From Gammaproteobacteria bacterium (GTDB lineage Bacteria > Gemmatimonadota > Gemmatimonadetes > Longimicrobiales > Gaopeijiaceae), in NCBI GenBank assembly GCA_009843625.1, contig VYDD01000156.1:2566-61847 (forward strand): DNA of 59,282 nt. The letters run 5' to 3'. Shown one piece after another: positions 26,101-44,711 of the stretch. The notes beneath the pieces are model-generated. The model worked only from the letters and a program-made list of their open reading frames with translations. It was not told the origin of the DNA and did not search any database. The translations under genes were made by a program, and so were the position numbers. Position 1 is the first letter of the stretch, and every line of letters begins with the position of its first letter.

Positions 26101-27273
26101 GTCGGGGGAGAAGGCCCCGAGGTCGCCGTACAGCGCCGCCCCGAGAGGATCGCGGCCGATGAGGAGGTCGCGGGCCGCGCCGCTGTGGGTCGCAAGCCAC
26201 CCCGAGAGGCCCCGCATCTCGGTGACCATGGCGCCGTCCGCGCCGCTGATCAGCGCCAGTACCCGCCGTGCCGGGAGGCCCTTCGCGATGCGCCGAGCGA
26301 GATGCCTGGCACCGAGGAACTCCGCGACGTGCCGGTGCACAGGCGCGAGCCGGCCGTCGCCGGCACCCGTGAACAGCCTCGTGCCGAGCGCGTGATCCAG
26401 TGCGGATGCATCGGGGTAGGCGCACTCCGCGAGGTCGATGTAGTCGGGACCGGCCGCGCCGCTCCGCCGCGCGTAGCCGGCGGCGCCCGTCACGAGGTGC
26501 GTCATGCAGAGGTAGCCGGCGGCGTCCAGCAGCCTCTCGGACGGCGGGGGCGAGCCCGCCCCGGCGTGCTCGCTGTTGTGCTCTGCGGCCATCTGGCGGC
26601 ACGCCATCTCGAACGTCTCGCGACGGCTTCCGGGCCAGCTGGCCTCCCTCGCGACGACGTCGGCCAGCATGTCGAGGGTCTGTGGGTTGGTGAGCAGGGC
26701 CTCGATGCTGCGTACGCGCGCCTGCTCCACAAATCCCCGTGCGTCGTCGATTCCAAAGTGGCCGTCCAGGATCCGCTCGATGTCGGAGCGGCTGAGCGGG
26801 TCGAGCCGCAGAACGGCGACGCTCGCGCCGGGGGCGACGGCATCCAACCTCGAGCGGTCGCTCTCGCCGAGCCAGTCCGCTTCCCGGCACGACAGACGGA
26901 AGCGCGGGGATCCGAGGGCATCGAGGTGGCGGCGAACATCATCGAGGGGCGTGCGCGTGTCGACGGAGCCGGCGCGCACCTCGTCGAGGCCATCGATGAA
27001 GATCGTCTTGTCGCGCCACTCAGGGTGCCGGGTCGGGTCCAGTGTCAGGAAGTCGCGGGCATCGAGCATGATGGCGGTGTCGCCGACTTCCTCGGACTCG
27101 CGCCGGAAGGCCGTGGTCTTCCCGGAACCCGGATCGCCGAGCAGGACGTAGGCCGGTTCGGACCGGAACGCGCTCAGGGCCTGGGGCTGCGGCGTTGTGG
27201 ACGAACCCTCGGCGCGCCGCAGGACCCGTGTGCAGGTGCGCTCGACGACCGGCCTCACGGTTCGCCGAGCCAT
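23152..27273 (-). CDS. STAND/NACHT-like NTPase with helical-repeat body and C-terminal PD-(D/E)xK-like module
   Basis: Walker A LLGDPGSGKTT and Walker B IFIDGLDEV near the N-terminus, then about 1000 aa that are Leu/Ala/Arg-rich. The C-terminus reads SDIRVSYGSFSVPLEIKKD...QLIEQY...GIFVVLWF (D...ExK). Start is ATG 27273 or GTG 27258, both overlapping the upstream gene. Confidence 0.85.
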   Translation of the reverse strand: MARRTVRPVVERTCTRVLRRAEGSSTTPQPQALSAFRSEPAYVLLGDPGSGKTTAFRRESEEVGDTAIMLDARDFLTLDPTRHPEWRDKTIFIDGLDEVRAGSVDTRTPLDDVRRHLDALGSPRFRLSCREADWLGESDRSRLDAVAPGASVAVLRLDPLSRSDIERILDGHFGIDDARGFVEQARVRSIEALLTNPQTLDMLADVVAREASWPGSRRETFEMACRQMAAEHNSEHAGAGSPPPSERLLDAAGYLCMTHLVTGAAGYARRSGAAGPDYIDLAECAYPDASALDHALGTRLFTGAGDGRLAPVHRHVAEFLGARHLARRIAKGLPARRVLALISGADGAMVTEMRGLSGWLATHSGAARDLLIGRDPLGAALYGDLGAFSPDERGRLLLALSRREALHQLWREVSWVDAATALGALTAPDMEPTLAGILSDPARDPSQRQLLLLVLALLRDGSRHADLVPALLALMHDPTWPPEVGDLALGAVLHSTEEGDGWAGDLVALLEEIRAGSIADPDHEMRGALLSRLYPRTVGPGDVWEYLVGPRDTPYDVVGHYDRFWRFDLTHRSSPKDVAALLDRLAEHLPEALVTLESLWADSLPLELLARGLAAFGDDLETPRLYDWLRAAAPSPERHHDTSDEPVQVRAWLEQRPDLQKALILEGLERCRDSDRFLEDSTAVWDALHGSELPTDLASWSLEQAIELAPSRPVVAKELLDVSSRGHPHWVTDRGIGFDVLEERIRGHAVLERRLAELRDRIARRAEREALRATRLSEARDREALAREKADEETAYVRAQADALRENRAPLALLRFLGHVYFLHGNNWTRNPSPEERLLDRLGGDRDLVDAALAGLRGTVWRSDVPGVEKIIRLKQASRMHYSALPFLAGVEILDRETPERLDELDERLVRTALAFFYCSAPGFNGLPRWHARWADRSPAVVADVAARCLSTAIRHGGSYAAALDAVDRLETPDLKLEATLSVLKTFPLRAGLAKLTILDRLLWSALGFADRSRLFDLIEAKLSAKSMEVAQRVRWLAAALVAAPESSTDRLDEFVRGRERRVRALAAFFGSGDSTAALPSPSYEECAQALRTLISVMGRSSAPPDSDQWVAIEPASERIERLIRRLSALPGEDAMRALDALLSDPGIAAWHDQLARARDDQRVIHRDAGYRHPDLEQLHSALEDEEPANARDLAALVLHRLHGIGSTVRTGNTDEWRQYWNEDAYGHPIKPKHEDSCRDALLARLRAMLPRGVDAQPEGQHAGRRRSDIRVSYGSFSVPLEIKKDTHREVWSAAKTQLIEQYTRDAETSGQGIFVVLWFNDGVMQAPPTGSRPSTPDELGRRLEEALTIEEAARISVIVLDVSPPTRRAAPN

Positions 27274-28514
27274 TCGTCGGCGGGCGTCGAGAGGAATTCG
27301 TTGAGCGGTACTCCTTCCTCCCCGACGACCAGCGGCCGCGGCGCGCCGAAGCGCTGCTGGAACGCGCGCATGGCGTCTTCGTTCGCGCGACGTTCGCCGC
27401 TCTTGACCTCGATCCCCACGACACGCGGGCCGCGCCGGAGAACGAAGTCGATCTCGTGCCGACCGTCTCGCCAGTAGTGGATGCCGACGCTCGCCGAGGC
27501 CGTGTTGACGAGGTGCGCCCCCACCGCGCTCTCGACGAGCCTGCCCCAGAAGGTGCGGTCGGCTCTCGCCTCATCGAAGGAGTAGCCGGACGCGGCGGTC
27601 ATGAGCGCCGTGTTGAGCACGTTGAGCTTCGGACTCGATGCCCTGCGGCGCGGGGTGCTCCCGGAGTGCTGCGACAGCCCCGTGAGCAGGCCCGCCGACG
27701 ACAGCAGGTCGAGGTAGCGCGCGAGCGTCGTCGTGTTGCCGGCGTCGTGGAGCTGGCCGAGCATCTTGTTGTAGGAGAGGATCTGCCCGGAGTGGGAGGC
27801 CCCGAGCGCGAAGAGGTTCTTCAGCAGGGCGGGCTTGTCCACCCGCGTCATGGCGAGCAGGTCACGCTCGAGGTGCGGCTCGACCAAGGCGTGCAGGATG
27901 TAGTCCCGCCACCGCGCCTCATCCCGGATGAGGGCGGCGGCACCGGGGTAGCCGCCGAAGTAGATGTACTCGTCGAGGGTCAGGTCGAATGCCGCGGCGA
28001 TCTCGGAGAAGGCCCAGTGCGTCATTCGGATCGGTTCGAACCTGCCGGCGAGACTCTCGCTCAGGCCTGACTGCATCAGGAGCGGGGCCGACCCGAGGAC
28101 GACCACGTGGAGCGGCACGTCGTTGGCGCGGTCGGCATCCCAGAGGCCCTTGATGGTCTCGGGCCAGTCGTGGATCTTCTGGATCTCGTCGTACACGAGC
28201 ACAAGACCGTGCGGGGACTCCCACGCTCGGCGCCGGGCATCTTCCCACGTGCGAACGACCCACGCCGGGTCGCGTTCGTCGGTGAGCGGAGCGGTGTTCC
28301 CCCGGAGCTCAGAGAGCACGAGACCAGGATCTGATGGTGGCGGCTCGTCGACCGCCAGGTACCGGCCGGGGCGATCGGTCCGGGCGAGCGCTTGGTGGAC
28401 CATGGTGGTCTTGCCGACCTGGCGAGGCCCGGAGATGGCGATCAGCCTGTTCGGCGGCTCCGCGAGCCGGGCTAGCAGCGTGTCGGCGCTCGCTCGACGG
28501 AAGGCGTCCATCAC
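27255..28514 (-). CDS. AAA_14-type ATPase with DUF4143-like C-terminus
   Basis: Walker A ISGPRQVGKTT and Walker B LVLVYDEIQ. The C-terminus reads HEIDFVLRRGPRVVGIEVKSG (nuclease-like D...ExK). GTG 28514 or ATG 28511. Confidence 0.9.
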   Translation of the reverse strand: MMDAFRRASADTLLARLAEPPNRLIAISGPRQVGKTTMVHQALARTDRPGRYLAVDEPPPSDPGLVLSELRGNTAPLTDERDPAWVVRTWEDARRRAWESPHGLVLVYDEIQKIHDWPETIKGLWDADRANDVPLHVVVLGSAPLLMQSGLSESLAGRFEPIRMTHWAFSEIAAAFDLTLDEYIYFGGYPGAAALIRDEARWRDYILHALVEPHLERDLLAMTRVDKPALLKNLFALGASHSGQILSYNKMLGQLHDAGNTTTLARYLDLLSSAGLLTGLSQHSGSTPRRRASSPKLNVLNTALMTAASGYSFDEARADRTFWGRLVESAVGAHLVNTASASVGIHYWRDGRHEIDFVLRRGPRVVGIEVKSGERRANEDAMRAFQQRFGAPRPLVVGEEGVPLNEFLSTPADEWLGEP

Positions 28515-29786: not shown

Positions 29787-30953
29787 TCAGTCCGCCTTGA
29801 GCAGGGGCTGGAGGTCGAGATCCTGGTAGAGGCGCCATCGGGAACCGGTCTCCGTGCACCGGAGGATCGTGAGCTTCCCATCGCCGAAGGCAACCGCCCA
29901 TAGTTCGTCGATGCCCGGAAACGTGATGCCGCCAAAATCCAGCGGCGAGTCGTCGAACTCGGTCACGCCCCGCAACTGCGTCGCGGCCTCGCCCTCGTCG
30001 AGGATCACCACGAGCCACCTCGAGGCCGCCATACCAGCCCACTGGTCGCGCTCCAGCTTGTGGTCGATGGACCGCTGCACAGCCGAGACTAGTGCCGAGA
30101 CATCGGTCACTCTCGAGAAGTGCGATACGGAGGTCACGAGGGTGATGCGCAGGCTTCCACAGCCTGCGCCGGCGGGCTCCTTCGCGAGGATGGAGACCCT
30201 TAGGGGCGGCTCCGACTTGAGCAACTCGTTCTTCGCCCACCGCCACTCGCGGCTGATTTCCTCCTCGCAGATCGCTTCGATCGGCGCATCGTCACCCGGG
30301 CCGAACTCGCCGTTCTCGACGCGCGCCAGGACCTCGGCCAGCATCTGGCGCACCCCGCTTACCGAGAAGGCATTGTCACCCGTGTAGTCGTTCAGATGGC
30401 GGTTGTCGGCGACGAGGACACGCCAGTTGTGGGAAAGCCCGGAGACGCCCCGGCGGCTGCGCGCGTTGCTCACCCCCCGGCGGCCCCCGTCGGTGTGCAT
30501 CGTGGCCTCGACATCGGCCGAGCGCCCGTCAGGGAGAACAACGCCGAAGTCCGCCCGGCGCCCCGTGCCCTGCGGCCGCTTCTCGATATTCGCCTCCGGG
30601 ATGACCGCCCGTATCGCGGCCGCAGCCATCTCCTCATCGGACCGAAGGTCGATCCCTTGCAGGACGCGGAGGCCATTGTTCTGGGCCCACTGGTTCCACG
30701 AACGAATCCCGCCGTCATCCCGTGCCCCGCCGACTTCAGCCGACACCGACCACTCGATCAGGTCGCCCTCTTCCGTGAAGCGCTGGTCGACCACTATCGA
30801 AAGGTAAGGGTGATCCGCAGCTGCGAGCACCTGTGGCGCCTCGCGTTTCAGGGCCGCGCGCACGCGGTCAAGTGCCTGCTCCAGGGTTCGTGGGTCAAGC
30901 ACATCACCGAAAGCCGCGGCCTCGGCATGGTCGGCCAACTGGTCTCCGTCCAC
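29787..30953 (-). CDS. Hypothetical protein, no recognised domain
   Basis: GTG 30953 is preceded by GGAGGT with an 8-nt spacer. Track ORF 29787..31187 extends further, but its first ~78 codons look like the C-terminus of the carbamate kinase remnant. Confidence 0.5.
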   Translation of the reverse strand: MDGDQLADHAEAAAFGDVLDPRTLEQALDRVRAALKREAPQVLAAADHPYLSIVVDQRFTEEGDLIEWSVSAEVGGARDDGGIRSWNQWAQNNGLRVLQGIDLRSDEEMAAAAIRAVIPEANIEKRPQGTGRRADFGVVLPDGRSADVEATMHTDGGRRGVSNARSRRGVSGLSHNWRVLVADNRHLNDYTGDNAFSVSGVRQMLAEVLARVENGEFGPGDDAPIEAICEEEISREWRWAKNELLKSEPPLRVSILAKEPAGAGCGSLRITLVTSVSHFSRVTDVSALVSAVQRSIDHKLERDQWAGMAASRWLVVILDEGEAATQLRGVTEFDDSPLDFGGITFPGIDELWAVAFGDGKLTILRCTETGSRWRLYQDLDLQPLLKAD

Positions 30954-30959
30954 GGCGGA

Positions 30960-31440
30960 ACACCTCCAAGTGCCGGAGCTGACTCGCTGTTCGGCAGGCT
31001 GAGCCGGCGCAGGCTCTCCAACGATGGGCACCCGATACTCATGCTCGGACCTTGAGACCTGAGGGGGAAGGGCACCGGAAGAGCCGTCCTTGCCGGCCAG
31101 CCCGGCAAGCCTCGATGCGCATCCGCTGGTACGCGTCGCCCCACATCCCCAGCGTGGTGTCGCCGCCCCGACGATAGGCGGTACCACGGCGTCGACGTCA
31201 GTGGCCAGGATCCCAGGTGGGCGCCGAGTTCGCGCGCGAGCAACTCGCTCGCGGCGTGCTTGTCGATCACGGCCTCGATCCCGCGCAGTTCGCTGCGACC
31301 CGAGTACGCCGGGGGATGCCGTCGCCGCCCAGGCAGATCACGATCGTCCCGCGCTCGAGGAGCCAACGGACCGAGTTGGGGCCATATTGGGTGGTACGGG
31401 GTGGGTTCCGGCGGGACGACACGGGCTTAGGGCTCCAGAA
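30960..31440 (-). pseudogene. arcC: Carbamate kinase remnant (N-terminally truncated, at least 2 frameshifts)
   Basis: Three frames carry consecutive carbamate kinase blocks: SPKPV...VRWLLERGTIVICLGGDGIP, then LRGIEAVIDKHAASELLA, then ILATDVDAVV ... IVGEPAPAQPAEQRVSSGT. Compare the family motifs SPKP, GGGGIPV, GVEAVIDKD and the C-terminal GT. Coordinates are approximate. Confidence 0.6.
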
Positions 31441-31978: not shown

Positions 31979-32005
31979 GACCCCCAGTTGACGAAACTGA
32001 GAGTC
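31979..32005. repeat. GACCCCCAGT-type hairpin repeat, copy d
   Basis: gacccccagtt-gacga-aactgagagtc. Confidence 0.7.
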
Positions 32006-32187: not shown

Positions 32188-33165
32188 CTAGAGTTCGATC
32201 TGGTACTGCCAAGTTCTCAAGAGTCCGTCAGTCGTCAGCTTCGAGTAGCTCTTCGCAAACGGGTAGATGATGCTTGCGGCGGTGTGCTCCAGCTCTCTCA
32301 GGTAGTAGAGAGCGAATCCAAGCACATGAGGTTTCGGGCCAGTCGGACACAAGTAGAGGTTCCCGAATTCCTGCTGGCGAGCGGCTGTCTCCTCACGCTC
32401 ACGGGCCACGAGGTCATGTAGCTCCTGTGCCACCGCGAACGGATGGTTAGCGGAAGCGTAAAGGAACCGCTGTCGAGGGACGCTGCCGATTGACTCTCTT
32501 GCCTGATCAATGCGTAGTACATTCTCTTGGTACATATGCGGCTGTAGTGACGGCAACCCCGTCACCACGTACTTCTTGCTGGTCTTCTTGGCGTCGCAAG
32601 CGCTTGCGATCTGTTGGGAATCGTAACCCGTCCCGACCACCAAGATGTCGTCTTCTGTGCCAGAAGGGACGCGATGCAAGCCTTCGTATCCTGGAACTTG
32701 CATCACATCGACTATCGGACCGGTAGTAAACTCTGTATGTTCATCCGCGACATAGCGCATAGGATCGCTATACAGGATATCAAACGACCTCACTCCTACA
32801 TCACGGAGTGCCCATAGCAGAATCAGCAAGTGGGGACGGATGAAACCCGTAATGTCTACACATATGCGGGCGTCGTGTAGTTGACTTTCCATGTTTCGAA
32901 TAAAGTCAAGCATTGCAGGGGGATCGAACGACGCCTGAAGAGTCACGGCTTCTTCTGGTCTCTCTCCTTCGCTGATCTCGTATTCTTCGTGCACAATCCA
33001 TATCTTATTGGAAGCCTGCACGGCTTCAAACGGCTCCTGCACTCGGACCGTCTTGTCGTAAGCAGACAATAGTATGTCCCAGGGCCCAGCTTGCGGTAGT
33101 TGCTCCGGCCTGTGTGCAGTTCGCTCGAACGCGTAGTAGTCAGCCCGACGGAGAGTGGAGAACAC
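32188..33165 (-). CDS. Uncharacterised 325-aa protein, last gene of the thyX-MTase cassette
   Basis: Non-GC-biased ORF starting 13 nt after the upstream stop. Alternating beta/alpha-like segments (ICVDITGFIRPHLLILLWAL, ILVVGTGYDSQQIA, LYLCPTGPKPHVLGFALYY) suggest Rossmann-like lobes. No catalytic motif recognised. Confidence 0.7.
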   Translation of the reverse strand: MFSTLRRADYYAFERTAHRPEQLPQAGPWDILLSAYDKTVRVQEPFEAVQASNKIWIVHEEYEISEGERPEEAVTLQASFDPPAMLDFIRNMESQLHDARICVDITGFIRPHLLILLWALRDVGVRSFDILYSDPMRYVADEHTEFTTGPIVDVMQVPGYEGLHRVPSGTEDDILVVGTGYDSQQIASACDAKKTSKKYVVTGLPSLQPHMYQENVLRIDQARESIGSVPRQRFLYASANHPFAVAQELHDLVAREREETAARQQEFGNLYLCPTGPKPHVLGFALYYLRELEHTAASIIYPFAKSYSKLTTDGLLRTWQYQIEL

Positions 33166-33178
33166 GCGTTACCCCAAG

Positions 33179-35233
33179 CTAGTCGTCGACTGCAAGAAGG
33201 GCTTGTCGCGCATGCGGTCCAGCGCCTCGGCCGAACGGAGCGTTCATCCTTGCAAGCCTCCGGGTCATCATTCTCGGAAAGGCTGCGGAGTGCTCTGGAT
33301 CGAAGATCGCATTCATCTCAGCAGGACTTAGCCGGACTGACCCTCGCCGGGCTGTTGGAAGATCCCATTTGGGACTCAGAAGACGGTTCAAATGGAACTT
33401 CCCCTCCATCAATCGGGTATTGCGGTCCTTCTGTCCGTGGACTGCTCGGACGAGAAGTGCCCATTGCTGCGCCAAGTGCACGACGTCACGTGCCCTAGCC
33501 GAGCACGCAGTCAGGTCCGCACTGAAAGTCGCAAGGGAACTCTCGACCGGCTTGTTCGAGAATCGGAAGAGCCGGAACATGTCGCCGAGTCGCTGAATCG
33601 CGTCGTGTACGTGCATGCCGGCCTCGCCCGGAGGCCGTGCATCTGCGAAGAACCAAGCGGCTGCTTCCCGTACCCCCTTCTGCTGCGAGTCTAGCGATAT
33701 GCGGCGGCCGAACAGCGGATCCTCGCCGTTAAACAGTGCCCACCGATAGGTGTTCTTGAGGATAATCAGGAGGTTTCGTGTCAGCCCGTCCGACATCGTG
33801 ATGAAATCGTCAATTCCCGCGTAGTGGGTTGGCAACCGCATGTCGTCGTAGAGCTGCGCGCGCAGATCGGTGACATAGTGGGAGAGCACTCGCCGCTGTG
33901 CGTCGGTCGGCTCGGGCACATCGCCACGGCGAGCTCTTGGCGCCGTGTCCGCGATCGTGTGGGCCGCTTCAAGGACACTCCTCCCCGATGCCCATGCGCG
34001 ATATATCAACAGCACGTTCACCTTCTCGAGAAGGGGGCGAGGTGGCACGCTGACGGCGTCGAGCACGAACTGAACGTCAGAGGGAGCCAGGGGTGCACCG
34101 TCGGCGGTCACGGGCTCCGATGAGAGCTGGCGAGCAAGAGTGCGGAGATATGGCCGTCGTGTGGGCTCATAGCGTTCGCGAACCATCTCTTCGGCGTGGT
34201 CCGGCGCAAGCTCTTCGACAAGGTCCTCGATGCGTGCCAGGCGACCCCTCTCGTCTGCCTCGACGCGCTCCTCCTCAATCCGACGATCGATTATCTCCCT
34301 ACAAAACTCGCGATACTGGCCCCAGTACCTGCCCGTATACTTGCGATCGAGGAAGATCTCCTCGACTTCCGACCCGCGTTTGTTCTCTTCTCCAACTCCC
34401 AGGACCTGATGGGTCCGGAGGCCATATGTACGCACCCCGACGATGAAGGAAGTTCCCGCCCGCTTTTCCCTCACCAGAGTGTTGACGTACTTTTGCTGGT
34501 CCTCGTCGAAGTTCTCAAATTCGTCTATCAGATAGAGGAATGTAACGTCTTCGAGTGGTGAAAAGTGTCGGCGAATGGCTTCGGGTATCCCGAAGACGAG
34601 CGAACCAGGAGTGGACGAGAGCGTGAGATCCAGCGGCTGGTGACGGTTGAGAACGGCATTGTTAACCGCCGAATCGATGTTCTTGGTGAGCGATACGAGA
34701 TGCTCACTGAGTGTCGATAGCGTGGTAGGGACTCGGTCATTTGGAGCGACGTAGAACAGACTCATGATGTCCCTGACCATGCTCTGTTCTTGTGCATCGT
34801 CAAGTGATTCGTGACCTATGATGATCTGGAACGCGCTCAAGGCCGCTTGAGCGAGCCAAACGTCCATGTATTGCGCGAAGACAGTCTGCCAAGTCTTGGA
34901 GTCTTGACCCCGCCCCTGGAAACGCAGTGAGTTGAGGCCGCTGCACAGGACATAGATTCCGAGGACACCGTCGTCCTTGACCTGGGCGATGGGATCGCTT
35001 GGTTGACGAATTGCCTGCACCGGGGCGGAAAAGTGGCGCATTATGTGCGTGCGACCGGTCCCCTTACCGCCGAGGACGAAGCGGGCGAGTGGGGATCGGA
35101 CGCTGATGAAATCCGCGAACCCGCCTGGTGCCGGCCAGTCCACCCATGTGGAATTGATTTGTGTGTCAGTGAAGTCAACAGCCTTCGTGACCTCGAATGG
35201 GTTGCCGCGCGTTGAGTTCCGAGGGGCATTCAT
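33179..35233 (-). CDS. P-loop NTPase (AAA+/ORC-Cdc6- or STAND-like), about 684 aa
   Basis: N-terminal NPFEVTKAVDFTDTQI, Walker A LGGKGTGRTH and Walker B FLYLIDEFENF. ATG 35233 sits 29 nt after the PRTase-like stop; the track ORF extends to 35380. Confidence 0.8.
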   Translation of the reverse strand: MNAPRNSTRGNPFEVTKAVDFTDTQINSTWVDWPAPGGFADFISVRSPLARFVLGGKGTGRTHIMRHFSAPVQAIRQPSDPIAQVKDDGVLGIYVLCSGLNSLRFQGRGQDSKTWQTVFAQYMDVWLAQAALSAFQIIIGHESLDDAQEQSMVRDIMSLFYVAPNDRVPTTLSTLSEHLVSLTKNIDSAVNNAVLNRHQPLDLTLSSTPGSLVFGIPEAIRRHFSPLEDVTFLYLIDEFENFDEDQQKYVNTLVREKRAGTSFIVGVRTYGLRTHQVLGVGEENKRGSEVEEIFLDRKYTGRYWGQYREFCREIIDRRIEEERVEADERGRLARIEDLVEELAPDHAEEMVRERYEPTRRPYLRTLARQLSSEPVTADGAPLAPSDVQFVLDAVSVPPRPLLEKVNVLLIYRAWASGRSVLEAAHTIADTAPRARRGDVPEPTDAQRRVLSHYVTDLRAQLYDDMRLPTHYAGIDDFITMSDGLTRNLLIILKNTYRWALFNGEDPLFGRRISLDSQQKGVREAAAWFFADARPPGEAGMHVHDAIQRLGDMFRLFRFSNKPVESSLATFSADLTACSARARDVVHLAQQWALLVRAVHGQKDRNTRLMEGKFHLNRLLSPKWDLPTARRGSVRLSPAEMNAIFDPEHSAAFPRMMTRRLARMNAPFGRGAGPHARQALLAVDD

Positions 35234-35262
35234 GTCCGGCGACAATCGTTCGCTTCCTTCGC

Positions 35263-36219
35263 TCACTGTTTCGGTATGCGCGGGAAGAGTGCACGCCACG
35301 GCGGTTGGGACTGCTCCGCCCAGAATATGGGCAACGTGTTGTCCGGGACATTGTGATGGAAGCCCAGCAAGAGCTGGCAATCGCCATGGCCGAGAGGGCC
35401 AGTCGGGTGCAGGCGCCTTCCGTAGTGGCGAGCCATTGCTTCTCCGTCGCTTTGTCGGAGGTCATTGCCCTGTTCACCGTATAGTTGCGACTCGGGCTCG
35501 AAGACACGGTACGTGTCGTCGAGCTCTGAGACGGTCGCCACCCGGTCGAAGACGGTCGCGTCCCTCAAGCGAGAAAGACCAGTCGTGGTACCGAACAGCG
35601 CTAGGTACCATACCTCCACCGAAACTGCGCTGCGGGTTGCAGCTGCTCGCAACCAGCGTACGGTTCCTCGGCCTAGGGCTATGGCCTGGCTTCCCGTCCC
35701 ACAGAAGTCGTCCACGAAGATGAGGCGCCGCACCGTTGGAGAGCCCCACTCGGTCTTTGGATCACGGAGAGGGCCTGTAACTAGTTCGAGAGGACTGACA
35801 AACGCTTCCGTGGGGAGACTGTTCGCAAGTCGGAAGTCGTAGAGAATATGCGGTCCGCTCTCGGCGGGCGTACCGAGACCAAGGAAACGTGTTCTCTCGA
35901 GTTCAGTGAGAAAACCACTGTGTACTGCGGCAAAGTCCTCTCGATTCCCTAGCGCTGCTCGGACATCGACGGAGAGAGGACTTCGGATGAGGTCGCGGAA
36001 CATCGCGCGCAAGAGTTGACGGACCTCGGTCTGCCCGAAATAGAGGAACTTCGAGAGAAGGTACAGGGCGTGGCGGCGCTCAGCCTCACGCGATAGTCGA
36101 CCACCCGAGAAGTTACTCAACCACACTTCTAGCGTCGGAAGGGTGACATGATCCTCCCAGAGAAGTTCGTTCAGGTTCTTTACCTTCGACTGGAGCTCGT
36201 TAGGGCCCGTTAACGGCAT
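35263..36219 (-). CDS. Phosphoribosyltransferase (PRTase)-like protein
   Basis: RLIFVDDFCGTGSQA is a PRPP-binding-loop signature (hydrophobic run, DD, xGTGx). It overlaps the MTase stop by 10 nt. Confidence 0.75.
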   Translation of the reverse strand: MPLTGPNELQSKVKNLNELLWEDHVTLPTLEVWLSNFSGGRLSREAERRHALYLLSKFLYFGQTEVRQLLRAMFRDLIRSPLSVDVRAALGNREDFAAVHSGFLTELERTRFLGLGTPAESGPHILYDFRLANSLPTEAFVSPLELVTGPLRDPKTEWGSPTVRRLIFVDDFCGTGSQAIALGRGTVRWLRAAATRSAVSVEVWYLALFGTTTGLSRLRDATVFDRVATVSELDDTYRVFEPESQLYGEQGNDLRQSDGEAMARHYGRRLHPTGPLGHGDCQLLLGFHHNVPDNTLPIFWAEQSQPPWRALFPRIPKQ

Positions 36220-37589
36220 GATGTGCAGGCTCCATCGTTTGCTTCTCCGGGGCGCCGGAGCCAGACGATGAACTCGTGATCGATACGCCCAGCCGTTGCA
36301 TGGCGTCGAGTGAGGAGGCCGCGGCTGGGAATGCGATCAACCAAGGTTGCGACGGATTGGAGACCGATTGCACTGCCAGCTCGGTGGAGGATCTGGTCTG
36401 CCGGGAATGGTACGCCAGCAATCGTGCTCCGCCCCAAAGTCACCAGGAGATGGCCGCCCGGCCGGAGCAGCCGACGGCACTCTTCGACAAAGGACAACAG
36501 ATAGTTGGAGTAGTCCGATGCCATTCGGGCACGCACCGGATTCGCACGATATATGGTGCGAACCAAGTCATCGACGTGGTGGTTGCCAGTCATCAGCGGC
36601 CCAAGTTCAGTATCGCTCCTAGGGACTGCCTCGGTCCCTAGTGTGCGACGGTCGAGATGCCTTAGTTCGGAAGAGGGGACGCCCGTGAGTATGAGTTCGA
36701 GCTTCATGCTGCGCACGTACTTCTGCGCTCCGCAGTAAGGCGGTGAGGTGATGATCGCGTCGATCGATTCCGATTGCAGGTTCGTCTGAGCCGCGTGAGC
36801 ATCTGCCCCGGCCAACCAGCACTTGCCAAGGCGATCGCGCATGTCGAATAGTTCCGACATCCTGCGAATGTTCGCGTTCGCAGCGTCCTCAAAGGCTGAA
36901 TAAACAAACGAAGTAGTAATGGAACGGGCTCTATCGAGTGCGGTCCGATATCTGGTCCCAGCGGAATCAGCCCGATCTTCACGGAGCCGGACTAGGGGTG
37001 GGATCGAGGGATCCGCTGCCGACACGCGACGTACGATGCTAGTCATCGCGACGAGGAAGAAGTCGCGGGCGCGAGCGTCATCAAGTCCGGCAATAGCTCT
37101 TGCCAGCCGATGAAGGCCGGTGCGGGCAGGTTCGGATAGCCACGAGTCTAGGACAGAATGTGGTGTGGGCTTCGAGCGAAATCGCTTGGCCTTCGGAAGA
37201 ACCCATGTCAGTTGTTCTTCGAGTAGATCAGGGTCGACAGGAGTTACCTTTGTTCGACTGATGAGTCGCGCCAGCGGACTAATGTCTATGCCGACAGCAT
37301 TATACCCACGGATACTCGCCTCGAGAAGAACAGTTCCTGATCCACAAAACGGGTCGAGTATGCTTGCGCCTTCTGGCAATTCGACGTTGTCTAGGAATAC
37401 AGATGGTATACGGTGAAACATCTTTGCTGGGTACCAATGGATCCAATGCGTCGCGAAATCGCGGCGGCCAACAGTTCCATGTGCATCGCGAAAGCTGACA
37501 ACTATCTCCTCGTCGCCTGGTGTGGTGCCACGTGCGAGCTGCTGCAAATCGAGGAACACTGTTCGTGCATCAGTCACTTGGACCGACAT
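36210..37589 (-). CDS. Amino (N4-C or N6-A) DNA methyltransferase
   Basis: Motif I LDPFCGSGTVLLEA precedes motif IV IITSPPYCG. ATG 37589 lies 5 nt after the thyX stop; the track alternative GTG 37634 would overlap thyX. Confidence 0.85.
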   Translation of the reverse strand: MSVQVTDARTVFLDLQQLARGTTPGDEEIVVSFRDAHGTVGRRDFATHWIHWYPAKMFHRIPSVFLDNVELPEGASILDPFCGSGTVLLEASIRGYNAVGIDISPLARLISRTKVTPVDPDLLEEQLTWVLPKAKRFRSKPTPHSVLDSWLSEPARTGLHRLARAIAGLDDARARDFFLVAMTSIVRRVSAADPSIPPLVRLREDRADSAGTRYRTALDRARSITTSFVYSAFEDAANANIRRMSELFDMRDRLGKCWLAGADAHAAQTNLQSESIDAIITSPPYCGAQKYVRSMKLELILTGVPSSELRHLDRRTLGTEAVPRSDTELGPLMTGNHHVDDLVRTIYRANPVRARMASDYSNYLLSFVEECRRLLRPGGHLLVTLGRSTIAGVPFPADQILHRAGSAIGLQSVATLVDRIPSRGLLTRRHATAGRIDHEFIVWLRRPGEANDGACTSCR

Positions 37590-37594
37590 TTGGC

Positions 37595-38626
37595 TTACCC
37601 GCCTAGATCGAGAGTCTTCAGCAACTCGTTCCATTCGCGTGCAGAGATTCGTGATGTTCTCCGCAGCGCCTCGGCCTCGGCGCGACGCCCCGCGACCAAC
37701 GAACGGACCACCGAGAGTGCGCCCTCGGAGAGCATGGCACCGTTCATCCGATAGTAGCAGTATGCCTCGTACACGAGCGGCACCCAGCGTTTCACGATGC
37801 GCTCAAGAATCGCCTCCGCGTACACCCGGATTTCGTACTGGGCATCATCGTCGGTGCGGAGCGACAGGAAGTGCAGCAGGTTGTGCAGATCAGTTTTCCA
37901 GTACCACTGCGTATAGAAGTTGACCGATAAGTTGATCCGAGCGAGCTCACGTGCTAGCCCGCTCCGCCGCTCGTGATGCGGCTCCCCGGTCGGCGACTCG
38001 TTCAGTAGTTCCTCGTAGTGCAGGTACGATCGCGCGGCGTCCTCGCGCAGCAGCTCCTGGACACGGGCGGCTTTCCGTAGAGAAAGTTGCTCGCCCCGGT
38101 CGTGACGACTGGGTCGCGATCTGGATCGTATGACTTCCGTACTTGGAGTATAAAACTCACGATCGAGGATCGAGTAGCGGGCGGAATATTCGTTGACGTT
38201 GGCTGTACGATGCCGGATCCACTGTCGCGCGACGAAGATGGGGAGTTTGACGTGCAGCTTAATCTCGCACATCTCGAAGGGAGTCGTGTGCCGGTGACGC
38301 ATGAGGTAGCGGATGAGCCCTCGATCATCCGACGTGCGTCGCGTGCCGCGTCCGTATGACACCCGTGCCGCCTGCACGATGGCGTCGTCGTCGCCCATGT
38401 AGTCAACAACCCGTACGAACCCGTGGTCCAGAACCTGCACGGGCGTGTACAAGAGGGTCTCGAGGGCTGGGACGGTGGCACGTGTCGTGTCGTATCGCTG
38501 GGCTTGCAAAGCCTCCAAGTCGGCTCTCTGCCCTGGGGTCATGAAGTCGGTCGTGGTGACCACCTCCGGCCAGTACAGGCCGCTGCCCTCGCGTATCGCG
38601 GCCCAAGCGTCGACGCGTGGCCGCAT
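37595..38626 (-). CDS. thyX: Flavin-dependent thymidylate synthase ThyX
   Basis: LDHGFVRVVDYMGDDDAIVQAARVSYG, HRHTTPFEM, and the ThyX motif RHR(X)7S in ARQWIRHRTANVNEYSARYS. Confidence 0.9.
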   Translation of the reverse strand: MRPRVDAWAAIREGSGLYWPEVVTTTDFMTPGQRADLEALQAQRYDTTRATVPALETLLYTPVQVLDHGFVRVVDYMGDDDAIVQAARVSYGRGTRRTSDDRGLIRYLMRHRHTTPFEMCEIKLHVKLPIFVARQWIRHRTANVNEYSARYSILDREFYTPSTEVIRSRSRPSRHDRGEQLSLRKAARVQELLREDAARSYLHYEELLNESPTGEPHHERRSGLARELARINLSVNFYTQWYWKTDLHNLLHFLSLRTDDDAQYEIRVYAEAILERIVKRWVPLVYEAYCYYRMNGAMLSEGALSVVRSLVAGRRAEAEALRRTSRISAREWNELLKTLDLGG

Positions 38627-39028: not shown

Positions 39029-39055
39029 GACCCCCAGTTTGCCCGACTGGGGGTC
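39029..39055. repeat. GACCCCCAGT-type hairpin repeat, copy e (perfect)
   Basis: gacccccagt-ttgcccg-actgggggtc: a perfect 10-bp stem with a 7-nt loop. Confidence 0.8.
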
Positions 39056-39141
39056 AGTGCGCCCTCAAGGTTTAGTCGGAATCGGACGCGGCTGGATCGT
39101 GGGCGGCGCCGCGTGCACCGTGCATGCCGAGGGAGGATTGC

Positions 39142-41118
39142 ATGAAGGTCTCGACCATTCTCGACCATGTCGACAGCGGCGACATGGCGCTACCCAAGTT
39201 CCAGCGCGGCTACGTCTGGAACCGCGATCAGGTGCGCGGGCTGATGGACTCGCTCTACCGGCGCCACCCGGTCGGGAGCCTGCTGGTCTGGGCCACCCCG
39301 GCCGAGGATGCGAGCCACCGGGGTGACCAGGAGCTCGCGCCGGGCGTCGTGAGGCTGTTGCTGGACGGGCAGCAGCGCATCACCTCGCTCTACGGGATCA
39401 TGCGGGGGGAGCCGCCGGCCTTCTTCGACGGCAACAAGCGGGCTTTCACCGACCTCTACTTCCACATCGGGACCGAGGAGTTCCGGTTCCACCAGCCCCT
39501 ACTCATGCGGGGCGATCCCCTCTGGATCAACGTCTCCGAGCTGATGCAGGCCGGGACCACGGGGCTGGGCCGGCACATCGCGCGGTTCGGCGAACTGGAC
39601 GAGCACGCGGACATGCAGGCCGAGTTCATCGGGCGCCTCACCAAGATCCTCGGCATCAGCGAGATCGACCTCCACGTCGAGGAGGTGACCGGCACCGACA
39701 AGACCATCGAAGTCGTGGTCGACATCTTCAACCGGGTCAACAGCGGCGGCACGAAGCTCTCGCAGGGCGACCTCGCGCTCGCCAAGATCTGCGGCTCGTG
39801 GCCCGAGGGGCGCGAGGACATGCAGTCGATCCTGGCGCGCTGGCGCAAGAACGGCTACGACTTCAACCTCGACTGGCTGCTCCGCAACGTGAACGCGATC
39901 GTGACTGGGGAGGCGCGCTTCTCCCACCTCCACGACGAATCGATGGGCGCCGTTCAGGAGGGCCTGCGCCGCGCCGAGAAGGGCGTGGACTACGCGCTGA
40001 ACCTCATCGCGGGCCGGCTCGGCCTCGACCACGATCGCGTCCTCTTCGGCCGCTACGCGCTGCCGGTGATGTCGCGCTACATCGACCGCCGCGGCGGGCA
40101 TCTGGGGAACGCAGCCGAGCGGGACCGCCTGCTCTACTGGTACTTCCAGAGCGCGATGTGGGGTCGCTTCTCGGGCTCGACGGAGACGGTGCTCGACCAG
40201 GACCTGGACGCGATCGAGGATGTCGACGGCGGCATCGAGCGGCTCATCGAGCAGCTCCGGCTCTGGCACGGCGGCTTGCGTGTCGAGCCAGCGCACTTCA
40301 GGGGGTGGAGCCTCGGAGCACGCTTCTACCCGGTCCTCTACGCCCTCACGCGCGTGGGGGAGGCTCGGGACTGGGGCACAGGCCTTGTGCTCCGACACGC
40401 GTTGCTCGGGCGCATGAACGAACTCGAAGTGCACCACATCTTCCCGAAGGCTCTGCTCTACCGCGCGGACGTCAAGCGCGCCCAGGTCAACGCCGTTGCC
40501 AACTTCTGCTTCCTCACCAAGGACACCAACCTCCAGATCAGCGACCGTCCGCCGGCGGAGTACTTCCGGGAGGTCGAGGCGAAGCATCCCGGCGCGCTCG
40601 CCTCGCAGTGGATCCCGATGGATGAGGAGCTGTGGGAGACCGAGAACTACGCACGCTTCCTGGAGGAACGCCAGCGGCTGCTTGCGGGGGCCGCAAACGC
40701 GCTGCTGGATGAGCTTCTGCACGACGCGCCCGCCGCCGCGGAGGCACCGGCGGCCGCCGTGCCAGAGGCCGCGGCGAGCGAGCCGGCGCCTGTTCCGGGA
40801 GGCATCGAGGACGCCGAGGAGGAGGCCGTCCTCCGCTCAATCAACGATTGGGTGCGGGGACAGGGCCTGCCCGAGGGCCACATCGAACACGAACTTGCGC
40901 ATCCGGAGACGGGCGACCCGCTCGCTATCCTCGACCTAGCATGGCCGGGCGGACTCCAGGAGGGCTACAGCGAGCCGGTCGCGCTGCTGCTCGGGGAGGA
41001 ACAGGAGACACTCCAGATCGCGAACGACCACGGCTTCCGGCACTTCACCGACACCGAAGCGTTCAAGCGCTACGCCGAGGCCGAGGTGCTGGCGCTGGCG
41101 GGAGAAGCCGCCCCGTGA
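39142..41118 (+). CDS. GmrSD-type enzyme (DUF262 ParB-like N-domain plus DUF1524/HNH-like domain) with extra C-terminal region
   Basis: LPKFQRGYVWNRDQVRGLMDSLYRRHPVGSLLVW and LLDGQQRITSL (DUF262), then ELEVHHIFPK...NAVANFCFLTKDTN (His-Me finger). GGGAGG lies 5 nt before ATG 39142. Confidence 0.85.
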   Translation: MKVSTILDHVDSGDMALPKFQRGYVWNRDQVRGLMDSLYRRHPVGSLLVWATPAEDASHRGDQELAPGVVRLLLDGQQRITSLYGIMRGEPPAFFDGNKRAFTDLYFHIGTEEFRFHQPLLMRGDPLWINVSELMQAGTTGLGRHIARFGELDEHADMQAEFIGRLTKILGISEIDLHVEEVTGTDKTIEVVVDIFNRVNSGGTKLSQGDLALAKICGSWPEGREDMQSILARWRKNGYDFNLDWLLRNVNAIVTGEARFSHLHDESMGAVQEGLRRAEKGVDYALNLIAGRLGLDHDRVLFGRYALPVMSRYIDRRGGHLGNAAERDRLLYWYFQSAMWGRFSGSTETVLDQDLDAIEDVDGGIERLIEQLRLWHGGLRVEPAHFRGWSLGARFYPVLYALTRVGEARDWGTGLVLRHALLGRMNELEVHHIFPKALLYRADVKRAQVNAVANFCFLTKDTNLQISDRPPAEYFREVEAKHPGALASQWIPMDEELWETENYARFLEERQRLLAGAANALLDELLHDAPAAAEAPAAAVPEAAASEPAPVPGGIEDAEEEAVLRSINDWVRGQGLPEGHIEHELAHPETGDPLAILDLAWPGGLQEGYSEPVALLLGEEQETLQIANDHGFRHFTDTEAFKRYAEAEVLALAGEAAP

Positions 41119-41598
41119 ACGCGCCCGCGCATACCTAGCGAGTGTCGAGCACTTGGACCGTGACCGGACCACGCTCGTGCGTCGCAGGACGATCCGCTGG
41201 CCAGTCCATGATCCGTGCAGGCCCACTGTCGTGCCCCCGTCCCGGATAGCGCCGCCCGGCGCCGCGCCACGCCGCAGCAGCGAAGTCACGAGGCAAGCCC
41301 GGACCGACTTGGCCACTTCCTAGGAGTTCACGCAGCCCTCGCGCTGGCGGCACGACGCTCGGACAGCATTGGCGTCCATACGTCGTTTCATTCCCCATCT
41401 AGTCTCATCATACGTATTTCATATCGACGCGTTTCGCGCGGCCGGGCATGCTCTCACGCGGGAGCCTGCGGCGACACATCGGCAGCGTGTGGTGCCGGCG
41501 ATCGATGCGTCGAGTCCCGTCGTAACTCCCGGCTCGGGCTTGTGCGATGGGCGAGTGCCGCCCGACCGCGGATGTGCGTGTGTGAAGAATCGACGGCG

Positions 41599-43851
41599 AT
41601 GCCCAGCGACACGTTCCACGCACCGGCGTCGCGCAGCGTGACCGCTGCCCAAGACACGGTCCAGCGCACAGCGATGTCCGGCGCCGAGGAGGCAGTCAAC
41701 TCGGTCACGCACCCGATCATCAATTCACCCTACGAACAGCCCACACGCTATTGGAGGCTCGACCACGAGCACAGAGCGACATCCGAGCAGGTGATCGGTC
41801 GACGGCCGAGCGCGAACCTTCCGGCCGTTCCCACACAGCGATTGGGTGAACAGCTACCCCTCATTCACAACCAGCTCGTGAACGATATCCGCGAAGCCGT
41901 TGGAATCTGGCGTGCGAACGGATACGCGGGAGCGACTGCGAATACGAAGCGGCTGCTCGCTCACTGGACCAACCCGCTCGCGCTACGTCGGCTCTTCTTC
42001 GCCCAAGTCGAGGCACTCGAGACCCTGATCTGGCTGACCGAGATTGCACCGGAGAGCGGCGCTCGCCCGGCCAATGACCTCCTACTCCGCGCGAGCCGAG
42101 CCGGCGGCGATCTCAACGACGGGCTGATGCGGATGGCCGTCAAGATGGCGACGGGTACTGGCAAGACCGCCACGATGGGGATGGTCATCGCCTGGCACGC
42201 GGTGAACGCTGGCGGCGGCCGACGCAATGCCCGTCACACAGGCCGCTACCACACGCAGTTCCTAGCCATCACGCCCGGCCTGACCGTACGTGAGCGACTG
42301 CGTGCCCTCGACCCGGCCGCCCCGAGCAATGTCTACGCGGAGCTCGATCTCGTGCCGGCCGACCTTCGCATGCATCTGGGCCAGGTGCATGTGCGGGCCA
42401 TCAACTTCCAAGCATTCCAGCGCCGTGACGTGCTTGGCCAGAACGTGACCGGCGATACACGGAGGTTGCTTCGCCGGTCCGGCGAGCGCGTCCTCGAGAG
42501 TTCGAGCGCGATGTTGCAGCGAGTGCTACGGGGAATGCCAGCGCTGGCTGGCGCGGGCAAGATCGTAGTGCTCAACGACGAGGCTCACCATTGCTACCTC
42601 CCCGGGGCGGAGCGTGGCCCCAATGCGAAGCCACTCCTCGACGAGAAACCCGACCCTCGGGACGAGCCGGCCGCGCTCTGGTTCAACGCCTTGCGCAGCC
42701 TCCGGGAGGCGGAAGTGCTGGCAGAGCCCATCTACGACTTCTCGGCGACCCCAATCTTCATTAGCACCTCGGCGCGCAAGGACGCGCAGATGTTCCCCTG
42801 GTGCGTCTCAGACTTCAGCCTGCTCGATGCGATCGAGTCCGGCCTGGTCAAGATCCCACGCGTCCCGGTCGAGGATGACAGCGACGCCGATTCCCCTGTC
42901 TGGCGGCGACTGTTCCAGAACACCAATCCGAAGACGCTTCATCGCCACGGACTGCACGGAGCGATCGCGTCGGGGCTCGATGCGCTCTATCGCAACTACG
43001 AGACGATCTACGAGCAGTGGTGCGGCGAGGGCGCCGAGCGACCCATGCCTACGCCGCCCGTATTCATCGCCGTCGCGGGCAACATCGCCAACGCCGAGGC
43101 ACTACACGACTACATGGCCGGCTACGCCGAGAAGGACACGAGTGGCGACACCGCCTATCGCCCCGGCGCCTGCCAGCTCTTCTCGAACGTGCTGCCCGAT
43201 CGGTCTGGCTGGGAGCCGTCGCTCAGGACGCTTCTCGTCCATTCGCAGCTCGACCAGGAAACGACGATTGGCAAGGGCAGCAGGCTTGGCCGTGCGATCT
43301 CCGCGCAGGCGGCGCTGCTTCGCGAGATGGGTGGCAGCTCGCTTGCGGGCATGGACGATCAATCGGTCGTGCGCGAGGCGCTGAACACGATAGGCAGGGT
43401 GGGGAAGCTCGGCGAGCAGATCCGCTGCGTCGTATCGGTATCGATGCTGACTGAGGGCTGGGACGCGAAGTGCACGCACATCCTCGGCTACCGGGCGTTC
43501 TCGACGCAGTTGCTCTGTGAGCAGGTAGTCGGGCGGGCGCTTCGGCGAACGAGCTACGACGTGGGCGAGGACGGGCTGCTCCCACCGGAGTTCGCGGAGG
43601 TTCTCGGAGTCCCGTTCGACTTCCTTCCTCCCGCCACGAGAAGCGTCGCGCCCCAGCCCGAACCGCGGCAGGCCTACGAGGTCAGGACACTGCCCGGCAG
43701 GCGGGAGGTCCGCATTGACTTCCCCTTGGTCGCCTCTTACCGGTTTGCACAGGGATCGGGGAGTCGACGCCTCGATCCAGCCCGAGTCGCGCCCTTCCAG
43801 CTTGAGGACGCCCCGACGATAGCGGTGATGGTGGGCGTGGCCGGGAGATAG
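41599..43851 (+). CDS. res: Type III restriction Res subunit, helicase/ATPase part (ends at an in-frame TAG)
   Basis: IINSPYEQPTRYW N-terminal motif, Walker A MATGTGKTAT, DEAH box VLNDEAHHC and motif VI-like QVVGRALRR. The start is uncertain (ATG 41599 or 41674; the track ORF starts at 41215). Confidence 0.8.
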   Translation: MPSDTFHAPASRSVTAAQDTVQRTAMSGAEEAVNSVTHPIINSPYEQPTRYWRLDHEHRATSEQVIGRRPSANLPAVPTQRLGEQLPLIHNQLVNDIREAVGIWRANGYAGATANTKRLLAHWTNPLALRRLFFAQVEALETLIWLTEIAPESGARPANDLLLRASRAGGDLNDGLMRMAVKMATGTGKTATMGMVIAWHAVNAGGGRRNARHTGRYHTQFLAITPGLTVRERLRALDPAAPSNVYAELDLVPADLRMHLGQVHVRAINFQAFQRRDVLGQNVTGDTRRLLRRSGERVLESSSAMLQRVLRGMPALAGAGKIVVLNDEAHHCYLPGAERGPNAKPLLDEKPDPRDEPAALWFNALRSLREAEVLAEPIYDFSATPIFISTSARKDAQMFPWCVSDFSLLDAIESGLVKIPRVPVEDDSDADSPVWRRLFQNTNPKTLHRHGLHGAIASGLDALYRNYETIYEQWCGEGAERPMPTPPVFIAVAGNIANAEALHDYMAGYAEKDTSGDTAYRPGACQLFSNVLPDRSGWEPSLRTLLVHSQLDQETTIGKGSRLGRAISAQAALLREMGGSSLAGMDDQSVVREALNTIGRVGKLGEQIRCVVSVSMLTEGWDAKCTHILGYRAFSTQLLCEQVVGRALRRTSYDVGEDGLLPPEFAEVLGVPFDFLPPATRSVAPQPEPRQAYEVRTLPGRREVRIDFPLVASYRFAQGSGSRRLDPARVAPFQLEDAPTIAVMVGVAGR

Positions 43852-44709: not shown

Positions 44710-44711
44710 CC

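Follow-up and report, generated by a model that had tools for sequence, protein, structure and literature searches.

A widespread four-gene cassette encoding methyltransferase, PRTase-like, ORC/Cdc6-like and CARF proteins, and its interchangeable thymidylate genes: a candidate system against phages and plasmids

Organization of the locus

We analyzed a stretch of 59,282 nucleotides (hereafter the window) from contig VYDD01000156.1 of GenBank assembly GCA_009843625.1, filed under the name Gammaproteobacteria bacterium and placed by GTDB in the Gemmatimonadota. Between positions 32188 and 38626, five open reading frames (ORFs) follow one another on the minus strand. They encode a flavin-dependent thymidylate synthase (ThyX), an amino-methyltransferase (MTase), a phosphoribosyltransferase (PRTase)-like protein, an ORC/Cdc6-like ATPase and a 325-residue protein of the CARF family (Table 1). 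The last four constitute a core that is probably an undescribed, widespread candidate system against phages and plasmids.

The five genes are tightly packed. The MTase most likely starts at the ATG at 37589, giving a protein of 459 residues, and from this start it is separated from thyX by a gap of 5 nt. The MTase and PRTase-like genes overlap by 10 nt, a gap of 29 nt lies between the PRTase-like and ATPase genes, and one of 13 nt between the ATPase and CARF genes. The GC content is 0.56-0.60 over 32-38 kb, compared with 0.64-0.72 in most other 1-kb bins of the window. An initial annotation made from the sequence alone had described five packed minus-strand genes with these gaps and overlaps, richer in A/T than their surroundings and bracketed by hairpins; our coordinates and composition agree with it, and we located the hairpins on both sides.

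Protein families encoded by the cassette

ThyX matches the Pfam family Thy1 (2e-53) and scores 196.7 bits against TIGR02170 (3e-58), well above the equivalog cut-off of 87.9. Its best match in the PDB is 6j61 (1.9e-67), and its motif RHRTANVNEYSARY (RHRxxxxxxxS) aligns with the solved ThyX structures 6j61 and 1kq4. The MTase carries a DPFCGSGT sequence (motif I) about 200 residues before an SPPY-type motif IV (ITSPPYC), and it matches Pfam N6_N4_Mtase (6e-14) as well as, over its full length, the PADLOC MTase_II model PDLC03322 (3e-39). It matches 61 PADLOC families in all, of which the 25 listed are MTase_II models plus one mad2 model, and sequence and profile searches of the PDB returned only matches to motif I. 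Both proteins had been read correctly in the initial annotation, the first as a complete flavin-dependent thymidylate synthase with its RHR...S motif intact and the second as an SPPY-type amino-methyltransferase without a recognizable endonuclease; we likewise find no nuclease domain.

The PRTase-like protein is matched by Pfam PF24390 PRTase-CE (4e-55) and by PADLOC PRTase_III-A (5e-28), the effector of type III-A retrons; five retron PRTase_III-A models are its only PADLOC matches at E<=0.1. The initial annotation had called it a PRTase-fold protein, of a fold that serves as an effector in some retrons, and these matches agree with that. Its phosphoribosyl pyrophosphate (PRPP) loop reads FVDDFCGTGSQ, and residues D170, D171, G176, G277, H289, N290, P292, N294 and P297 are invariant in 25 homologues, among which the C-terminal motif G277-x14-P292-D-N294-x-x-P297 is likewise unchanged. 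At the corresponding place, the PRTase of Retron-Eco11 carries Gx14PNNxP, a motif specific to retrons (PMC12746101). With the PRPP loop and a close variant of this motif, the cassette protein belongs to the retron III-A effector type. Sequence and profile searches of the PDB gave no match.

Pfam PF24389 (ORC-CDC6-like) spans the whole of the ATPase (3e-111). We read the protein as 684 residues long; the public gene call begins 12 nt earlier and gives 688. Its translation contains the motifs NPF, GGKGTGRTH and YLIDEFEN. Across 28 homologues, the window included, Walker A takes the form GGKG[ST]G[RK]TH, with arginine at position 61 in half of the proteins and lysine in the rest. K57, four residues before position 61, is invariant, as is the Walker B sequence YLIDEFE, and the P-loop is altogether an unusual one. 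The earlier description of a 684-residue Walker A/B NTPase with an NPF-type N terminus therefore stands as to its motifs but not as to the canonical Walker A lysine, which here is an arginine. An AlphaFold2 model (mean predicted local distance difference test score, pLDDT, of 82) gave weak Foldseek matches to RdrA, Orc1/Cdc6 and MalT and to nothing else, and no close solved relative emerged from sequence and profile searches of the PDB. A search for phage-borne copies returned two weak partial matches in Acinetobacter phage records and no more.

The 325-residue protein, which had been set aside as unannotatable, is a CARF-family protein by profile, fold and signature. It matches the PADLOC CARF6 model PDLC01914 over its full length (4e-86); we take the CARF6 models to derive from the CARF classification of Makarova et al. 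2020. With an AlphaFold2 model of pLDDT 91, the top Foldseek matches are the CARF domains of Csm6, Cam1, Card1, Can2 and Cad1, at probabilities of 0.95-1.0 and E-values of only ~1e-3 to 1e-2, along with the SAVED domain of Cap5. The CARF signature comprises a six-stranded Rossmann-like core in which a serine or threonine ends strand 1 and [DN]X[ST]XXX[RK] directly follows strand 4 (PMC4012209). In the model and alignment of the cassette protein, a strand at residues 29-35 ends in the invariant S34, and the fourth strand (101-104) is followed by the invariant D104-I-T106-G-F-I-R110, in which D104-x-T106-x3-R110 fits the signature. This N-terminal CARF domain of ~160 residues is joined to a second alpha/beta domain, well folded and with invariant polar residues of its own. 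We predict that the protein is a nucleotide-ligand sensor or regulator.

Domain and fold searches recognized no effector domain fused to the CARF domain, and sequence and profile searches of the PDB gave no match. Because an hhalign comparison of the two halves found no similarity, the sequence gives no support to a tandem-CARF (SAVED-like) build. Separately, we noted a metagenomic protein of 787 residues (P0360) in which a NACHT-like P-loop NTPase (GAGKTT / DGFDE) precedes the C-terminal two-thirds of a CARF-family protein. It may be a true fusion, which would link the domain of the CARF protein to STAND-type sensors, or an artefact of assembly.

Co-conservation of the four core genes

We surveyed related loci with the CARF-homologue alignment alone as the query, taking one genome per species; 116 stretches matched, and 80 loci were kept and examined as 20-kb stretches. 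The family as a whole numbers 892 representatives (50% clustering, E<=1e-3), 211 of them at E<=1e-30. Over 15 phyla are represented in the 80 loci, among them Chloroflexota, Actinomycetota, Acidobacteriota, Pseudomonadota, Bacteroidota, Planctomycetota, Nitrospirota, Gemmatimonadota and Latescibacterota, as well as one Heimdallarchaeota metagenome-assembled genome (MAG), and plasmid copies come in addition. By tblastn with the window proteins, the ATPase is present in 77/80 loci, the PRTase-like protein in 72/80 and the MTase in 68/80.

The order MTase, PRTase, ATPase, CARF is kept on a single strand in all but one of the 68 complete cassettes; in the exception (L006), the MTase gene is found downstream, on the other strand and beside thyX. 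Eleven of the 12 incomplete loci are cut by the end of a contig. In the twelfth, from a Prolixibacteraceae MAG (L062, 6333-7884), a 455-codon ORF resembling an insertion sequence (IS) replaces the MTase together with the PRTase-like gene except for its last 34 codons, so that these two are lost together while the ATPase and CARF genes are intact. The four core proteins show similar, collinear conservation, and several loci have an ATPase gene that overlaps the CARF gene.

A blastn comparison of the window with a Chloroflexota sponge MAG (L001) aligns 6.4 kb at 76% identity, corresponding exactly to positions 32192-38576. The homology takes in thyX, the CARF gene and everything between them but neither flank: the operon of five genes was transferred horizontally and moved as one unit. 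The strict co-occurrence of the core genes and their similar, collinear conservation establish the core as one co-evolving unit of four genes. Chance juxtaposition, against which the initial annotation had proposed a check of co-occurrence across genomes, is ruled out by the co-conservation in 80 loci together with the single block shared with the sponge MAG. Of the five genes first proposed as a cassette, four make up the core; thyX does not belong to it and is an accessory gene, as described below.

Two further observations arose from the survey. In four Bacteroidales loci (L053, at 10940-11905, L062, L067 and L070), a DUF4365 protein of ~320 residues is encoded directly downstream of the CARF gene and is perhaps an additional component particular to that clade. 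The metagenome ENGE20-1 (SAMN12347682) has short contigs with identical or near-identical pieces of the cassette (L084, L085; P0049), and NCBI lists one of these fragments under a 'Gammaproteobacteria bacterium' MAG. The closest full relative of these pieces is in a Chloroflexota MAG labelled IRC3_bin_22, which we read as sponge-derived.

Association with thymidylate and dUTPase genes

When all flanking ORFs of the 80 loci were clustered, only three families besides the core recurred: ThyX (17 loci), a dUTPase of 150 residues (Dut, 11 loci) and the thymidylate synthase ThyA (7 loci). All score above the NCBIfam equivalog cut-offs and have intact catalytic motifs. The 97 other genes immediately next to cassettes include no Pfam family with more than three occurrences. 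A ThyX, ThyA or dUTPase gene is found in the flank of 31/68 complete cassettes, or of 29 of the 59 that have at least 2 kb on both sides, and it is directly adjacent in 30. Gaps between accessory gene and cassette are mostly -33 to +64 nt and at most ~550 nt, save in one locus (L075) at 1.4 kb; in another (L066), ThyA-like ORFs lie 3-4 kb from the cassette. The accessory gene may be upstream or downstream, co-directional or opposed, and all four arrangements are seen. In further metagenome contigs, looked up independently, ThyX adjoins the cassette in three of four.

These cases are scattered on the ATPase tree: those with ThyA belong to Bacteroidota clades, those with ThyX to alphaproteobacterial, Chloroflexota and Latescibacterota clades, and Dut accompanies cassettes of Actinomycetota, Acidobacteriota and Nitrospira. 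The cassette-linked ThyX proteins are of at least three sequence types and the ThyA proteins of two. The thyX gene of the window is thus one of several interchangeable accessory genes that stand beside about half of the cassettes, and what their products have in common is the route from dUTP through dUMP to dTMP. We considered whether the ThyX of the window represents a clade confined to cassettes and rejected the idea: its 80 nearest relatives in Joint Genome Institute (JGI) metagenomes (57-71% identity, with the same extensions) include none that lies near cassette genes. Since these relatives are never found beside a cassette, the enzyme is an ordinary ThyX recruited by the cassette rather than a specialized paralogue. 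We found no description in the searchable literature of a repeated and independent recruitment of thymidylate or dUTPase genes by a defence operon.

One ThyA-like gene stands apart. Beside a Conexibacter cassette (L032, 4565-5470, minus strand), it encodes a protein with 30-34% identity to the other cassette-linked ThyA proteins that passes only the broad thymidylate synthase model; it may be a dTMP synthase or a hydroxymethylase-type relative.

Genomic setting

The cassette occurs on mobile elements. The conjugative plasmid pCpl of Sinorhizobium meliloti carries a five-gene version, annotated as thyX, MTase and three "hypothetical proteins", in which the thyX stop abuts the MTase start. Four-gene or decayed versions are present on Rhizobium and Moraxella plasmids, and integrases lie near the cassette in seven loci.

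In the window, the cassette sits in a defence island, whose members, the PDC-S48 gene among them, are listed in Table 1. The neighbours in other loci include type I restriction–modification (R-M) systems, PemK, PLD-helicase, SIR2, GmrSD, AbiEii-like ATPases and integrases. Two long ORFs in the vicinity match no Pfam or PADLOC model. The one of 1373 residues lies directly beside the PDC-S01 gene, so it may be an uncharacterized defence gene; the other, of 466 residues, separates PDC-S01 from the cassette and has no counterpart in the related loci.

Table 1. Features of the cassette and its surroundings, in positions of the window
Feature	Position	Strand	Remarks
thyX	37595-38626	-	flavin-dependent thymidylate synthase; accessory, outside core cassette
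MTase	36210-37634, or 36210-37589 from internal ATG	-	S-adenosylmethionine-dependent amino-methyltransferase
PRTase-like gene	35263-36219	-	PRPP loop and C-terminal motif; predicted effector
ATPase	33179-35233	-	ORC/Cdc6-like AAA+, 684 residues; predicted sensor or scaffold
CARF gene	32188-33165	-	325-residue protein; predicted nucleotide-ligand sensor or regulator
Hairpin, degenerate copy	31979-32005	+	183 nt past the stop of the last (CARF) gene
Hairpin, perfect copy	39029-39055	+	GACCCCCAGT-N7-ACTGGGGGTC; ~400 nt upstream of thyX
Hairpin, further copies	11974-12000, 12962-12988, 17535-17561, 53747-53773, 57613-57639	+	
PDC-S01 (DUF4143/AAA_14)	27255-28514		defence neighbour
GmrSD/HEC-05 type IV enzyme	39124-41118		defence neighbour
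Type III Res/Mod pair	41215-47372		defence neighbour
NurA-HerA-MTase set	47730-52265		defence neighbour
NurA-like gene	47730-49130		part of the set; low-GC block 48000-52000
HerA	49078-51042		part of the set; low-GC block 48000-52000
Second N6/N4 methyltransferase	51003-52265		part of the set; low-GC block 48000-52000
PDC-S48/DEDDh gene	52262-53434		
1373-residue ORF	23152-27273	-	no Pfam or PADLOC match
466-residue ORF	29787-31187	-	no Pfam or PADLOC match

The hairpins that bracket the cassette belong to a palindromic family of 27 nt with the consensus GACCCCCAGT-N7-ACTGRGGSTC, of which the window holds seven copies where none is expected by chance. Since a comparison of their flanks found nothing in common beyond the 27-nt core, there is no evidence that they are attachment (att) sites or the ends of a longer mobile element. 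Elsewhere in the window, two more stretches of low GC are apparent at 20-23 kb and 48-52 kb, and the blocks 19000-23000 and 48000-52000 (0.56-0.60) resemble separate acquired modules. Several hairpin copies sit at the borders of low-GC blocks, so that the hairpin may be a repetitive extragenic palindromic (REP)-like element, a bidirectional terminator or a recombination site.

Proposed mechanism and alternatives

For the role in defence and for each step by which it might be carried out, we infer the following from the anatomy of the operon and its kinships. The MTase is predicted to methylate host DNA and so to mark it as self. The ATPase and the CARF protein encoded right after it would form a sensing or regulatory module, which might respond to unmodified incoming DNA, to a nucleotide ligand in the CARF pocket, or to both. 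The PRTase-like protein would then act as the effector, using up PRPP or otherwise distorting nucleotide pools until replication stops. ThyX in the window, and ThyA or dUTPase elsewhere, would be an optional module channelling deoxyuridine nucleotides to dTMP. Such a module could shield the host dTTP supply and prevent uracil from entering DNA when the effector leaks or is active, or else it could clear a deoxyuridine nucleotide that would trigger the CARF sensor, in the manner of a ring nuclease. This combination of a self-marking MTase, ATPase/CARF sensing, a PRTase effector and an optional thymidylate module is the reading that we favour, if by a modest measure; its thymidylate-specific part, taken separately, we hold to be doubtful.

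The scheme rests on four observations: the MTase is always kept, the sole decayed locus having lost it along with the PRTase-like gene; the latter protein falls in the retron III-A effector clade; the pairing of an ORC/Cdc6-clade ATPase with a methyltransferase recalls the logic of BREX; and the CARF pocket is invariant. Activating the PRTase of Retron-Eco11 is associated with depletion of PRPP and with abortive infection (PMC12746101). ShosT couples PRTase and pyrophosphatase activities and disrupts purine metabolism (PMC11961720), and Ophion also requires its PRTase. One of the two hypotheses offered with the initial annotation, in which methylation marks self, the NTPase senses and the PRTase acts, fits both this anatomy and the retron III-A kinship.

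Several points weigh against the scheme. The cassette contains no nuclease or other classical restriction component, and its CARF domain is found without any nucleotide cyclase in the conserved neighbourhood. The arginine that replaces the canonical Walker A lysine in the window's clade may weaken ATP hydrolysis. The chemistry of the PRTase-like protein is assumed by analogy, because its sequence matches no solved PRTase at a detectable level. Sequence-specific R-M systems under diversifying selection often show domain swapping; here the region between MTase motifs I and IV varies in sequence, with neither swapped domains nor changes in length. As for the thymidylate module, about half of the cassettes have no thymidylate gene nearby, and the 80 nearest metagenomic relatives of the window's ThyX all stand apart from cassettes.

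A bolder version of the scheme would place the deoxyuridylate/thymidylate pool at the center of a modification-linked immunity that senses and kills through it. A deoxyuridine-type or PRPP-derived nucleotide would be what the CARF protein reads, the PRTase would collapse the nucleotide supply, and ThyX, ThyA or dUTPase would serve as signal-clearing or self-protection enzymes. We offer it tentatively and think it rather unlikely. If true, thymidylate metabolism would be an integral and selectable part of a bacterial defence system, and the three enzymes would be a metabolic equivalent of ring nucleases.

It is also conceivable, if improbable, that the PRTase-like protein makes a second messenger, a phosphoribosylated nucleotide-like signal derived from PRPP, for which the CARF protein is the receptor, with the output residing in the C-terminal domain of the latter or in the ATPase. 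CARF domains serve as ligand sensors and have a basic pocket that is conserved among them and invariant here. Because neither the cassette nor its recurrent neighbourhood contains a cyclase, the ligand would have to come from another enzyme of the operon, and the well-folded C-terminal half of the CARF protein, with its invariant polar residues, is a candidate output domain. However, members of this PRTase clade act as effectors or toxins in retrons and in ShosTA, and neither the CARF protein nor the ATPase has a recognizable nuclease, pore or NADase domain.

The accessory genes could instead be passengers, housekeeping or mobile-element genes that happen to lie where cassettes insert and have no functional tie to them. 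The commonness of the window's ThyX type, otherwise never beside a cassette, would agree with this, as would the cassettes that lack such a gene and the ThyA-like ORFs 3-4 kb from one of them. We nonetheless give the idea little weight, since non-orthologous enzymes of a single route (three types of ThyX, two of ThyA, and Dut) have each been recruited directly beside the cassette, often overlapping it or a few nucleotides away and in all four arrangements, and since no other neighbouring family recurs. In the window, moreover, thyX has the low GC of the core and lies within the block shared with the sponge MAG, and on the S. meliloti plasmid it runs directly into the MTase gene.

A further possibility, to which we assign a slim chance, is that the core is an addiction module that enforces post-segregational killing on behalf of a plasmid or island, the loss of the methylase freeing the PRTase toxin. 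Its copies on conjugative plasmids and beside integrases and IS elements point in this direction, as does the joint loss of MTase and PRTase in the Prolixibacteraceae locus. Most copies, however, are chromosomal and lie among defence genes, and addiction and defence are compatible in modification-linked systems.

The second hypothesis of the initial annotation, that ThyX and the PRTase supply a modified pyrimidine nucleotide, newly made or salvaged, for DNA hypermodification, draws on the operon's link to pyrimidine metabolism and on the recent validation in E. coli of defence operons that contain a thymidylate synthase (PMC13092281), but it is very improbable, given that ThyX, ThyA and Dut are canonical, optional and interchangeable, that the closest ThyX relatives never adjoin a cassette, that the remaining operon proteins are sensor- and effector-like, and that, among the immediate neighbours of the cassettes, no enzyme of a thymidine hypermodification pathway, be it a dUMP hydroxymethylase, 5-hydroxymethyldeoxyuridine DNA kinase, glycosylase, TGT/DpdA-like, amino-acid-transfer or other group-transfer enzyme recurred.

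Should the favoured scheme of self-marking, sensing and PRTase attack describe a working defence system, it would add a four-protein architecture that is widely distributed, across many phyla, one Heimdallarchaeota MAG and plasmids. It would unite epigenetic self-marking, cyclase-free CARF sensing and PRTase attack on nucleotide pools, which have so far been studied apart. The thymidylate link is a testable handle on the CARF ligand and on the action of the PRTase effector in the cell, and the cassette could clarify the workings of the poorly understood PRTase effectors of the retron type.

Comparison with known systems

We found no name or description of the cassette in PADLOC v2.0.0, NCBIfam, the PDB or the searchable literature, although an earlier mention in comparative genomics may exist; this agrees with the initial judgement that the combination fits no named system. 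PADLOC v2.0.0 recognizes only the parts, as MTase_II, PRTase_III-A and CARF6. RefSeq calls the three core proteins other than the MTase hypothetical, and NCBIfam has no model for them. That Pfam has two dedicated, consecutive families for these proteins, PF24389 and PF24390, suggests that the operon has come to a curator's notice. What is new here is the combination of module types; the modules themselves are already known.

By analogy, the cassette seems to act most like a hybrid that joins a modification-linked system, with the logic of BREX or R-M, to an abortive PRTase-effector system such as retron III-A or ShosTA and to a CARF sensor. Its effector is closest to that of type III-A retrons (Retron-Eco11), whose models it matches and with which it shares the PRPP loop and the G-x14-P-[DN]-N motif, the third motif reading PDNxxP in the cassette and PNNxP in the retron. 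Unlike a retron, the cassette has no reverse transcriptase, all five ORFs being assigned to other families, and no multicopy single-stranded DNA, its intergenic gaps measuring at most 29 nt, although no search aimed at a noncoding RNA was made. The effector is coupled instead to a methyltransferase, an ORC/Cdc6-like ATPase and a CARF protein, with no antitoxin partner. ShosTA, PsyrTA and Ophion can be grouped with retron III-A as kin that deploy a PRTase effector. In ShosTA, ShosT combines a PRTase with a pyrophosphatase and is paired with the DprA-like antitoxin ShosA, whereas the cassette has no DprA-like (ShosA-like) gene and its PRTase-like protein matches retron models only.

With type II R-M systems the cassette shares an N6/N4-type amino-methyltransferase that matches PADLOC MTase_II. 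It has no restriction endonuclease, either among its own proteins or recurrently beside them, and three unrelated proteins take that place. In type III CRISPR-Cas and CBASS, the counterpart is the CARF fold with its ligand-pocket signature (SAVED in CBASS). Here, none of the five proteins is Cas10, a CD-NTase or another cyclase, and none of these recurs among the 97 immediate neighbours, where each Pfam family is found at most three times; the conserved neighbourhood has no CRISPR array, and no recognized effector is fused to the cassette CARF domain.

BREX offers a parallel in logic. It combines self-marking by a methyltransferase with a large AAA+ ATPase of the ORC/Cdc6 clade and has no obvious nuclease (PMC12839542), and the cassette similarly pairs a methyltransferase with an ORC/Cdc6-like ATPase and no obvious nuclease. 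The proteins themselves differ: Pfam and PADLOC scans of the cassette gave no match to BrxC, PglX, DUF499 or PglZ, and the ATPase, at 684 residues compared with ~1200 for BrxC, matches PF24389 only. What further distinguishes the cassette from BREX is its PRTase effector candidate and its CARF protein.

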